This document shows, piece after piece, positions 30,142 to 32,286 of a DNA stretch of 64,000 bases. Below the pieces are notes generated by a model that made no database searches, was not told the DNA's origin, and worked only from the letters and a program-made list of their open reading frames with translations. Each line of letters starts with the position of its first letter. Within the stretch, counting starts at the first letter, position 1. The DNA comes from Candidatus Daviesbacteria bacterium (lineage in GTDB: Bacteria > Patescibacteriota > Microgenomatia > Daviesbacterales > UBA10151), in NCBI GenBank assembly GCA_016186955.1, contig JACPKP010000003.1:194290-258289 (forward strand). The letters are read 5' to 3'. Both the position numbers and the translations under genes were made by a program.

Positions 30142-32286
30142 ATGCAAAACCTGGTAATTGTTGAATCACCTACCAAAGCCCGGACACTTGCAAAGTTTTT
30201 GGGCGCTAAATATCAAATAGAAGCTTCAATGGGCCATGTCAGGGACTTACCAAAATCAGAGCTTGGTGTAGATGTAGGACAAAATTTCCAACCTAAATAT
30301 ATTATTCCCAGGGATAAAAAGAAACTTGTTAATACGCTTAAAAAAACCGCATCTTCTGCAAAGAACTTATATCTTGCAACAGACCCTGACAGGGAAGGGG
30401 AAGCGATTGCATGGCATATAGCGGAATTACTGCGTAACTCCGAAGTTAAAAGTCAAAAGTCAAAAGTCAAAAAAGAAGAATCGCAAATAAAGAGGGTTGT
30501 ATTCCATGAGATTACGGAGGATGCCATAAAAGAGGCTTTCAAGCATCCGCGGGATCTGGATTACAAACTGATTGATGCCCAGCAGGCGAGGCGGGTTTTA
30601 GACAGGCTGGTGGGTTATAAATTGTCCCCCCTGCTTTGGAAAAAAGTCAAAAGAGGTCTGTCTGCAGGCAGGGTGCAGACTGTTGCATTAAGATTGGTGG
30701 TGGAGAGGGAAAAGGAGGTAACTGCCTTCAAACCTGTTGAGTATTGGAGTATTGAGGCAGAGTTAGAGTCAAGAGTCAAGAGTCAAGAGTCAAGGTTTAT
30801 AGCTACTTTGACAGAGTTTAATAGCAAGAAGCTGGAGATTGGTAACGGGATGCAAGCAAAAAAGCATGTGGAGAACTTGGAAAAAGCAGAATATTCAGTT
30901 TCAAAAGTTGACCGGAAAGAAATTAAACGCTATCCTTTCCCGCCGTTTACCACTTCAACACTCCAGCAGGCTGCCGGCAATAAATTAGGGTTTACAGCTA
31001 AAAAAACCATGATGCTGGCGCAAAATTTATATGAACATGGGTTGATTACTTACATGAGGACAGATTCTTTTAACCTGTCTCCGGTAGCTTTGATGCAGTC
31101 AAGGGAGTTTATAAAGTCACAATATGGAAAAAATTATTTACCCCCAAAGCCGCGTGTTTTTAAGTCCAGATCTAAAAATGCCCAGGAAGCCCATGAGGCA
31201 ATACGCCCAACAAATATTAAATTCGAAATTCGAAATAATACGCCCGCTTCGCGAACGAAATTCGAACATTCTCTGACAAGAGACCATGCCAGGCTGTATG
31301 ACCTGATCTGGCAAAGGATGGTGGCATCCCAGATGGCAGAGGCTTTAGTAGAACAGACAGGTGTAGATATTATAGCCGTTTGTCATCCTCGACTTGATCG
31401 AGGATCATTCATGAAAATGGATTCCCGCCTTCGCGGGAATGACAGTGCAGAAAACCAGAATGACAAAACTTACACCCTTCATGCAGCAGGCTCTGTCATT
31501 AAATTTGACGGCTGGCTGAAAATATACGGAATAAGTAGCAAGACACAAGATACAAGAGACAAGAAGCAAGAAAAGGAGGAGGAAGAAGAAGATGAAAAAA
31601 ACCAGATACTGCCTGAGCTCAAAGTTGGCGAAGACCTGAATTTATTGCAGCTTTTACCAAACCAGCATTTTACCCAACCCCCTCCAAGATATACGGAAAG
31701 CTCGCTGATCAAAAAACTGGAGGAGTTGGGGATAGGCCGGCCTTCCACTTACGCCCCGATACTTTCAACCATCCAGGAGAGGTTTTATGTTGAAAAACAG
31801 GAGAAAAAATTCGTGCCGACTGCTTTAGGGTTGGCCACCTGTGATTTTTTAATTAAATATTTCCCGGACGTTTTTGACTACCAATTTACAGCTTCTATGG
31901 AAGATCAGCTTGATGACATAGCAGCAGGCAACAGGGATTGGAAACAAACCTTAATTGAGTTTTATCCGCCGTTTGAAAAAAAACTTGCAGGTGTTGAAAA
32001 AAAAGCCGGAAAAGTAAAAGTTGCAGTTGAGTATGCAGGGAAGAAATGCCCTAAATGCGGCAAAGAGCTGGTGGTAAGAGCCGGCAGGTTTGGCAAGTTT
32101 TTGGCATGTTCAGGTTTTCCGGATTGTAAACACACTGAAAGTTTGGTTACGGAAGTAATTAATGCAAAATGCCCGGAGGATGGCGGGGATATTGTTATAA
32201 GAAAGACTAAAAAAAGACGGGTTTTTTACGGTTGCAAAAATTACCCCGAGTGCAAATACGCGTCATGGACAAAACCTAAAAGTTAA
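30142..32286 (+). CDS. topA: DNA topoisomerase I with C-terminal zinc ribbons (contains three in-frame repeat insertions)
   Basis: LVIVESPTKA Toprim start, TYMRTDS region, catalytic core, CPKCGKELVVRAGRFGKFLACSGFPDC zinc ribbon; ORF begins 30097 with TTG, ATG at 30142 more likely. Confidence 0.9.
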   Translation: MQNLVIVESPTKARTLAKFLGAKYQIEASMGHVRDLPKSELGVDVGQNFQPKYIIPRDKKKLVNTLKKTASSAKNLYLATDPDREGEAIAWHIAELLRNSEVKSQKSKVKKEESQIKRVVFHEITEDAIKEAFKHPRDLDYKLIDAQQARRVLDRLVGYKLSPLLWKKVKRGLSAGRVQTVALRLVVEREKEVTAFKPVEYWSIEAELESRVKSQESRFIATLTEFNSKKLEIGNGMQAKKHVENLEKAEYSVSKVDRKEIKRYPFPPFTTSTLQQAAGNKLGFTAKKTMMLAQNLYEHGLITYMRTDSFNLSPVALMQSREFIKSQYGKNYLPPKPRVFKSRSKNAQEAHEAIRPTNIKFEIRNNTPASRTKFEHSLTRDHARLYDLIWQRMVASQMAEALVEQTGVDIIAVCHPRLDRGSFMKMDSRLRGNDSAENQNDKTYTLHAAGSVIKFDGWLKIYGISSKTQDTRDKKQEKEEEEEDEKNQILPELKVGEDLNLLQLLPNQHFTQPPPRYTESSLIKKLEELGIGRPSTYAPILSTIQERFYVEKQEKKFVPTALGLATCDFLIKYFPDVFDYQFTASMEDQLDDIAAGNRDWKQTLIEFYPPFEKKLAGVEKKAGKVKVAVEYAGKKCPKCGKELVVRAGRFGKFLACSGFPDCKHTESLVTEVINAKCPEDGGDIVIRKTKKRRVFYGCKNYPECKYASWTKPKS
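30443..30473. repeat. tandem heptamer (AAGTYAA)x4 in topA, in frame (KSQKSKVK)
   Basis: direct reading. Confidence 0.8.
30760..30794. repeat. tandem heptamer (GAGTCAA)x5 in topA, in frame (ESRVKSQESR)
   Basis: direct reading; same unit as dnaX tract at 62351. Confidence 0.8.
31381..31444. repeat. dual-hairpin MITE/REP-like repeat, type 1 copy (inside topA, in frame)
   Basis: tgtcatcctcgacttgatcgaggatc...ggattcccgccttcgcgggaatgaca; encodes CHPRLDRGSFMKMDSRLRGNDS inserted in topA. Confidence 0.85.

Follow-up and report, generated by a model that had tools for sequence, protein, structure and literature searches.

A CGTC-tagged REP dimer is inserted in frame in topA

In the 64,000-nucleotide stretch of contig JACPKP010000003.1 from a Candidatus Daviesbacteria bacterium (hereafter designated the window; G+C content, 41%), the topA gene of this member of the candidate phyla radiation (CPR) carries a 64-base palindromic element, which, as judged from its sequence, is a head-to-head (HH) dimer of CGTC-tagged repetitive extragenic palindrome (REP) hairpins. 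The superfamily to which we assign it comprises the Neisseria dRS3/NTS repeats, the Ssn-related motifs (SRMs), and two Rickettsia palindromic elements (RPEs), RPE-4 and RPE-6. The best overall explanation of the observations described below is that a CGTC-tagged REP dimer is tolerated in a loop of TopA and has been spread via an Ssn-type nuclease, a reading to which we assign a probability of about 0.8. The kind of element and its in-frame insertion are already known; new here is the host clade, CPR.

The gene, encoding a type IA topoisomerase, is intact and extends on the plus strand from the first ATG at 30142 to 32286. Its product has the same sequence throughout (100% identity) as a publicly annotated type I DNA topoisomerase of Candidatus Daviesbacteria with 720 residues, a length that implies a start near 30124, and contains Toprim, Topoisom_bac, and zinc-ribbon domains; the catalytic positions and all those invariant across 84 orthologues are present. 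The open reading frame (ORF; 30097–32286) is unbroken across the element and reads CHPRLDRGSFMKMDSRLRGNDS there. The element itself, located at 31381–31444 on the plus strand (tgtcatcctcgacttgatcgaggatcattcatgaaaatggattcccgccttcgcgggaatgaca), encodes CHPRLDRGSFMKMDSRLRGND(S), and the only one of its six frames that is open is the frame in use.

As the first-pass annotation of this DNA had reported, the 64 bases contain two perfect palindromic hairpins within the intact topA frame. Hairpin 1 has the stem ATCCTCGA/TCGAGGAT (31385–31392 and 31398–31405) with the loop CTTGA, and hairpin 2 has the stem ATTCCCGC/GCGGGAAT (31421–31428 and 31433–31440) with the loop CTTC, both stems being perfect over 8 bp. 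When folded as single-stranded DNA (ssDNA), the element forms both hairpins with a free energy of −17.5 kcal/mol (z = −3.95), a stability reached by none of 200 shuffled sequences. Each hairpin is the core of one repeat unit. Unit 1 (31381–31408, plus strand; tag TGTC, loop CTTGA, tail CAT) resembles CGTC family 2, and unit 2 (31417–31444), which reads TGTCATTCCCGCGAAGGCGGGAATCCAT on the minus strand, belongs to CGTC family 1, that is, the dRS3/NTS type. Between them lies the spacer tcatgaaa (31409–31416), which is unrelated in sequence and different in length among the four full copies found in the window.

Directly after the element, the sequence CCAGAATGACA (31455–31465, plus strand), encoding part of AENQNDK, is the relic right half of an older ATTCTGG-type unit, which indicates that the site was occupied earlier. 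Within the window, intact units of the ATTCTGG type are present in dnaX and a Wzy-like gene; they also occupy the TopA loops of the orthologues P0004, P0056, and P0011.

The element shares the features of CGTC-tagged REPs and of the NTS/SRM motifs

CGTC-tagged REPs have been defined by a tag, CGTC or often TGTC, a stem of 8–9 bp beginning with A-T, a loop of 4 nt in family 1 and 5 nt in families 2–4, and a tail that is mostly CCA, and they are chiefly organized as HH dimers with the tags outside (Di Nocera, De Gregorio, Rocco 2013, PMC3733652). The topA element is alike in all these respects. Thus, TGTC precedes both units, each on its own strand; both stems are of 8 bp, with A-T as the first pair and T-A as the second; the loops are CTTC (4 nt) and CTTGA (5 nt); and the tail is CCA in unit 2, whereas in unit 1 it is CAT in topA and CCA in three sister copies. 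Moreover, the repetition typical of the family is evident within the 64-kb window, which contains eight dimers with tags outside, together with single units. Intragenic CGTC dimers encoding 20–30 residues, many of them in replication and repair genes, have also been reported before, as in the present case, but the hosts in that survey belong to five phyla and are mostly Alphaproteobacteria, whereas the present host belongs to CPR; the topA dimer is, in addition, a hybrid of two families, and TopA is not named among the genes in the text of that paper (PMC3733652).

The same survey equates CGTC-1 with Neisseria dRS3 and with RPE-6 of R. conorii, and CGTC-4 with RPE-4 (PMC3733652). The first-pass annotation had placed the element in a sequence family different from that of the Rickettsia elements; this assignment has to be given up, since the hairpins fit a class of repeats that is in part equated with RPE-6 and RPE-4.

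The second published definition concerns the NTS repeat, whose 28-nt consensus, CGTCATTCCCGCGMAVGCGGGAATCYRG, includes the dRS3 repeat, and the degenerate SRM defined alongside it (Chenal et al. 2025, PMC11893778). Unit 2 agrees with the NTS consensus at 26 of the 28 positions and also matches the SRM motif, which is matched six times in the window, 0.14 matches being expected. That work does not deal with CPR genomes, CGTC-tagged REPs, or copies located within genes or in frame (PMC11893778). In other genomes the ssn gene is flanked by the units, whereas no ssn gene is present in the window. The equation of CGTC-tagged REPs with SRMs is a synthesis that we propose here by comparing the two published definitions; neither paper (PMC3733652, PMC11893778) cites the concept of the other. 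Our search of the literature on CPR/Patescibacteria for MITEs (miniature inverted-repeat transposable elements) or in-frame palindromes found nothing relevant.

That the element is repeated was part of the original claim and holds within the window, over which the copy search was run: the core of hairpin 2 occurs five times against 0.03 expected, and the heptamer GTCATYC is present 29 times, compared with an expected 10.5. Four of the eight dimers lie in frame in coding sequences, namely, topA, fmt, dnaX, and the Wzy-like gene, and four are full dual-hairpin copies of the topA kind (4114–4187, 31381–31444, 51014–51079, and 61677–61741).

The presence of in-frame copies in several unrelated genes bears out the analogy with Rickettsia palindromic elements made in the first-pass annotation. 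Those elements are reportedly selfish palindromic repeats that lie in frame in a wide range of unrelated genes, often essential ones, where the protein fold can accommodate them. RPE-1, which is longer (about 150 bp), is an unrelated element. The likeness to the elements of Ogata et al. (2000) consists in an in-frame palindromic repeat shared by unrelated genes (here topA, fmt, dnaX, and the Wzy-like gene); the host clade differs, and kinship to RPE-6 and RPE-4 is drawn from the published equation (PMC3733652) rather than from a direct comparison with RPE sequences.

The insertion site is a surface loop of TopA that probably tolerates insertions

An alignment of 120 TopA orthologues, the nearest of which is 67% identical to the window protein, places the element between conserved blocks, in agreement with the first reading of the sequence. 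The loop at this site has 33 residues in the window protein versus 4 in the shortest orthologues. About 50 of the 120 possess such a 4-residue loop (e.g., DVKA-ND-YLLRATG), and the remainder carry unrelated inserts. The earlier estimate was of about 21 added residues, but 64 nt is not a multiple of 3, and the difference between 33 and 4 residues includes the part encoded by the relic CCAGAATGACA.

On E. coli TopA, the insertion point falls between the residues around G419–D421 and F422, which is the turn of a β-hairpin in domain D2. The predicted insert region of the window protein contains the peptide stretch CHPRLDRGSFMKMDSR. In an AlphaFold2 model (mean predicted local distance difference test (pLDDT) score, 80.3), the insert is a coil between the strands 401–414 and 442–455, with pLDDT values below 50 at residues 425–438. 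The location in a surface loop, which had been put forward as a question, is supported by both the β-hairpin tip and the low-pLDDT coil. According to this model, the surface loop that the insert would add is disordered and has about 22 residues, a number that rises to about 29 when the adjoining older relic is counted.

The same loop is occupied repeatedly among the orthologues. In each of the five loops checked (P0056, P0098, P0004, P0087, and P0011), the insert consists of two inverted GTCAT units with different stems. Repeats unrelated to the CGTC type are also found at this site, namely, runs of heptamers (CCATCAG..., ACGACAG...) in P0104 (locus L206) and a pair of 13-nt palindromes, CACCTCCGAGGTG...CACCTCGGAGGTG, in P0018 (locus L207). 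In a neighbour-joining tree of TopA, 4-residue loops and the various types of insert are interspersed, and close relatives have their insert in common.

This distribution bears on whether many independent insertions have to be assumed. A single ancient insert, inherited in the loop and overwritten in place by gene conversion, would also account for insert types being common to close relatives and for the right junction, CAGAATGACAA(T/A)..ACTTA(C/T), being similar in the window relic, P0056, and P0011. However, the left junctions differ by several codons between lineages, 4-residue loops are scattered through the tree, and at least three unrelated kinds of repeat are found at the site; we therefore regard inheritance of one ancient insert as rather unlikely, although it deserves to be kept in view.

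An alternative to the passive presence of the dimer is that it has a function, either in cis through its hairpins (in transcription, mRNA stability, or Ssn-dependent DNA uptake and recombination) or by conferring a new property on TopA. Both stems are indeed perfect within a coding region, and the units are conserved between the topA and fmt copies, whereas the spacers are wholly different; in Neisseria, the only genus for which such a role has been shown, natural transformation is modulated by NTS repeats in concert with SsnA (PMC11893778). Nevertheless, about 40% of the orthologues lack the loop and elsewhere it is occupied by unrelated sequences, some of them repeats not of the CGTC type; disorder is predicted for the segment, and elements of the same type reside in unrelated genes and in intergenic DNA. 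A functional insertion therefore seems improbable, and the topA dimer is most likely a tolerated passenger.

The possibility that the dimer is intrinsically open in most frames was considered and rejected, as the fraction of open frames was 0.1–0.5 versus about 0.35 in shuffled sequences. Because the same loops bear different repeats across lineages and the dimers are not unusually stop-free, these results suggest that selection lets insertions survive at tolerant loops only, rather than that the repeats have a specific target site. A dimer was inserted into the β-hairpin tip of TopA domain D2 in Candidatus Daviesbacteria and is presumably read through by the ribosome to yield an extra disordered surface loop. 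Genic copies would persist only if they preserve the reading frame and add a loop that the protein tolerates, and survival limited in this manner would lead to the same loop being filled by different repeats in other lineages. In this scheme, we infer the translation of the element, its neutrality, and its mobilization by Ssn.

A type IB topoisomerase gene (16820–17911, minus strand; Pfam Topoisom_I and Top1B_N_bact) is also encoded in the window, and therefore TopA may not be the sole relaxing enzyme of this genome.

Similar dimers are spread over many phyla

A relaxed dimer pattern, in which three stem positions per hairpin were left free, matched at least 120 loci in the genome collection. 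Among the matches listed, to which the host and pairing statistics given here apply, the dimers are spread over many phyla. The CPR hosts include Daviesbacteria, Roizmanbacteria, Uhrbacteria, Saccharibacteria, Berkelbacteria, Wolfebacteria, Doudnabacteria, and Absconditabacterales, and the other hosts include Rickettsiales, Coxiellaceae, sphingomonads, Bacteroidota, Desulfobacterota, Fibrobacter, and more. Both free stem parts are perfectly complementary in 100 of 121 dimers, 96% of the free positions form Watson–Crick pairs, and 12 and 11 distinct variants are found for the two stems. Wobble pairs are equally rare on both strands, which fits a constraint on DNA hairpins better than one on a single RNA strand. 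Viral contigs with the dimer pattern are rare (three cases).

Outside the window, dimers lie in frame in the genes for leucyl-tRNA synthetase (LeuRS), DNA polymerase I (PolA), UvrD, and Tgt, and again in a Wzy-like gene. One UvrD-like helicase of Patescibacteria (locus L116, 5008–7998) contains an intein (Intein_splicing/Hint) as well as an in-frame CGTC dimer.

The dimer has the architecture of an ssn cassette lacking the gene

SsnA is a 94-residue GIY-YIG nuclease that binds NTS and SRM as ssDNA and cuts a few bases upstream of the motif, and the ssnA gene is often flanked by the motif (PMC11893778). The 2013 survey found no dedicated or mobilizing enzyme for CGTC-tagged REPs (PMC3733652). 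In the loci that we fetched, GIY-YIG ORFs (Pfam PF01541, E about 1e-17) adjoin dimers in Saccharibacteria (L011), in a gammaproteobacterial locus (L076), and, in a frameshifted form, in Comamonas (L050). The arrangement was further analyzed in a metagenomic set of 80 ssn loci, which yielded 55 distinct genes with a recognizable ORF. The nearest perfect unit upstream of ssn points outward in 33 of 41 cases (p = 1e-4) at a median gap of 23 nt, and the nearest one downstream points outward in 28 of 31 (p = 5e-6) at a median gap of 8 nt; outward-pointing units are present on both sides of 24 genes. The ssn cassette therefore consists of the gene between two such units, (unit>) ssn (<unit), that is, the architecture of the 64-bp dimer plus a gene, and the dimer looks like a miniature, gene-less form of this cassette. 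A fixed unit type on the left or right of the cassette was rejected as a rule, flanks of the same type and of different types both being present.

Since the dimer shares the architecture of the ssn cassette, we infer that its spread would require an Ssn-type nuclease, which would bind each hairpin as ssDNA and nick a few bases 5′ of the tag. Extending this to a general scheme, in which the dimers are non-autonomous derivatives of ssn cassettes, Ssn is the mobilizer, and one system underlies dRS3/NTS, RPE-4/RPE-6, and the in-frame load of CPR genes, gives a proposal that we put forward only tentatively.

The Ssn family has a great many members: a query with the Saccharibacteria protein returned thousands of relatives, 68–85% identical across phyla, and among the 120 of these that were listed, none bears the Daviesbacteria label. 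The Ssn-like proteins P0121–P0240 have 94–101 residues and are 68–85% identical between Patescibacteria, Omnitrophota, and Deltaproteobacteria, most of them being encoded on very short contigs, a pattern that fits a multi-copy, horizontally transferred gene.

Several points weigh against the explanation favoured here. One stem position in hairpin 1 of the topA copy departs from the published SRM regular expression, and the perfection of both stems could reflect recent insertion, gene conversion, or selection on the hairpins. The relation between cassette and dimer could equally be the converse, with ssn genes inserting into pre-existing dimers. Furthermore, a search of the window ORFs for the GIY-YIG motif and of all fetched ORFs by phmmer with two Ssn sequences detected no ssn gene in the 64-kb window, nor in the other Microgenomates loci, about 160 kb in total; the fetched Daviesbacteria loci likewise gave no match to either phmmer query. 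GIY-YIG nucleases hydrolyse DNA and do not carry out strand transfer, so that Ssn alone provides no copying mechanism.

Mobilization by a transposase was considered in two forms. In the first, the element would be a classical MITE that arose by deletion from an insertion sequence and is moved by a DDE transposase recognizing the TGTCAT/ATGACA termini; the first-pass annotation had described it as MITE-like. It is indeed small and present in many copies, and its ends are inverted over 6–7 nt. The inverted termini tgtcat/atgaca are present as stated, but they correspond to the TGTC tags together with the initial stem bases of two independent, inverted hairpin units, which are also found singly, nested, and in arrays, and are not of the transposon type. 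Moreover, direct repeats of 2–8 nt flanking 113 dimers are at the level of shuffled pairings, giving no sign of target-site duplication, and the four copies in the window likewise show no such duplication. A Pfam scan covering about half of the window genes returned no transposase, and the only gene found between such ends is the ssn nuclease. The MITE-like label is apt only in a loose sense, and we consider the transposon origin very improbable.

In the second form, the dimer would be a REP or bacterial interspersed mosaic element (BIME) mobilized by a REP-associated tyrosine transposase (RAYT) of the IS200/IS605 family, as proposed for GTAG-tagged REPs. In general layout the two agree, both having tagged hairpins that form dimers with outer tags and are recognized as ssDNA (PMC3733652), and the GTAG-tagged REP/BIME/REPIN systems likewise include a small gene flanked by the same hairpins. 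The tag, however, is TGTC/CGTC rather than GTAG, and no RAYT flanked by CGTC units was found in any species surveyed (PMC3733652). The enzymes also differ, a Y1 transposase cutting and rejoining DNA in contrast to a hydrolytic GIY-YIG nuclease. The window ORFs scanned include no Y1 transposase, and none was found beside the units in the fetched loci, where ssn genes were present instead. There is accordingly very little to favour a RAYT as the mobilizing enzyme over the Ssn-type nuclease that we prefer.

Implications for CPR proteins

Collectively, the observations indicate that palindromic repeats in frame in essential genes are not peculiar to Rickettsia and are frequent in a small CPR genome, in which four of eight dimers within 64 kb are coding. 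They also join two separate literatures, the 2013 CGTC-REP survey, which had no enzyme, and the 2025 work on Ssn, which did not deal with REPs, coding insertions, or CPR. What is added here is that dimers so often lie in coding sequence in a CPR genome, that the same loops are used recurrently, and that the dimer is related to the ssn cassette.

The recurrent occupation of the TopA and Fmt loops provides a natural map of insertion-tolerant sites, and repeat insertions constitute a testable source of the extra loops in CPR proteins. If the proposed scheme is true, essential CPR genes would bear a heavy, hitherto undescribed load of loop insertions that recur at the same tolerant loops, and these would feed the lineage-specific insertions typical of CPR proteins. 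For annotation, the peptides MDSRLRGND, VIPAKAGIQ, or CHPxLDxGS within conserved proteins mark repeat insertions and not new domains.

Other copies in the window

The sister dimer of the same subtype at 4114–4187 (plus strand) lies in frame in fmt, a minus-strand gene (4022–4993) for methionyl-tRNA formyltransferase, and adds SVIPAKAGIQKTKKKNGSSIKVEDDK to the C-terminal domain of the protein; the loop of its unit 1 has 6 nt. The nearest Fmt relatives have a shortened domain and read KFLPxxx-IQLEGKKP, without the insert, whereas three other Fmt proteins (P0242, P0244, and P0249) carry different REP-type inserts at exactly the same site. Of the remaining full copies, both on the plus strand, one is intergenic (51014–51079), with the hairpin-1 stem ATCCCGGA, and the other (61677–61741) is located just upstream of ybeY and overlaps the first ATG of that ORF. 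The stem ATCCTCGA is common to the topA and fmt copies, and the two intergenic copies have ATCCCGGA in its place via compensatory changes.

ATTCTGG-type dimers lie in frame at two sites, both on the plus strand. One (63282–63378) is in dnaX (62167–63768), where it falls in the linker that connects domain III to the C-terminal domain; an exact-protein look-up gave no record of the dnaX product. The other (9098–9210) is in the minus-strand gene (7613–10030) for a Wzy_C/TPR membrane protein. In the dnaX dimer, the loop of the right unit itself contains a further CGTC unit (63343–63364), suggesting that hairpin loops can receive units; the TopA loop of P0098 (locus L002) likewise has 35 extra bases within a hairpin loop. 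The remaining dimers, at 47442–47552 (stems ATTGC..., ATCCT...) and 48601–48684 (stems ATTGC..., ATCCC...), are intergenic, on the plus strand, and composed of other unit types. A single CGTC-1 unit is located at 59812–59839 on the minus strand, just upstream of the trigger factor gene. A hairpin at 40245 in the dCTP deaminase gene was examined as a further unit and dismissed as native or chance sequence; the stretch around it resembles what we take to be native dCTP deaminase sequence, with the T-x-E motif of the family. A scan of the whole window against Rfam at gathering thresholds matched no family.

Partial right halves, consisting of a stem arm and GAATGAC or GGATGAC, follow complete units, sometimes two or three consecutively, as seen at 31455–31465 in the window and downstream of ssn in L011, L076, and L050; they may be footprints of repeated insertion or slippage. 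An additional palindrome, TGACAAACTGA(G/A)T...A(C/T)TCAGTTTGTCA, present at 47548–47583 and 61645–61681, abuts two intergenic dimers of the window and shares the terminal TGTCA/TGACA with them, and it may represent another repeat family or an extension of the dimers.

In two further genes of the window, the Pfam match spans more residues than the profile, the Beta_elim_lyase match (11038–12495) by about 100 and the UPF0047 match (1707–2237) by about 24, and the excess residues may be further lineage-specific insertions; a GTCAT...ATGAC pair was not found in either of these two genes. Finally, a 4.3-kb contig from another sequencing run (L208; Logan SRR12113420) encodes an identical UPF0047 protein, next to which lie the four gene families that also neighbour it at the left end of the window, and therefore, on comparison of the UPF0047 sequence alone, the same or a very close organism is indicated in the SRR12113420 sample.

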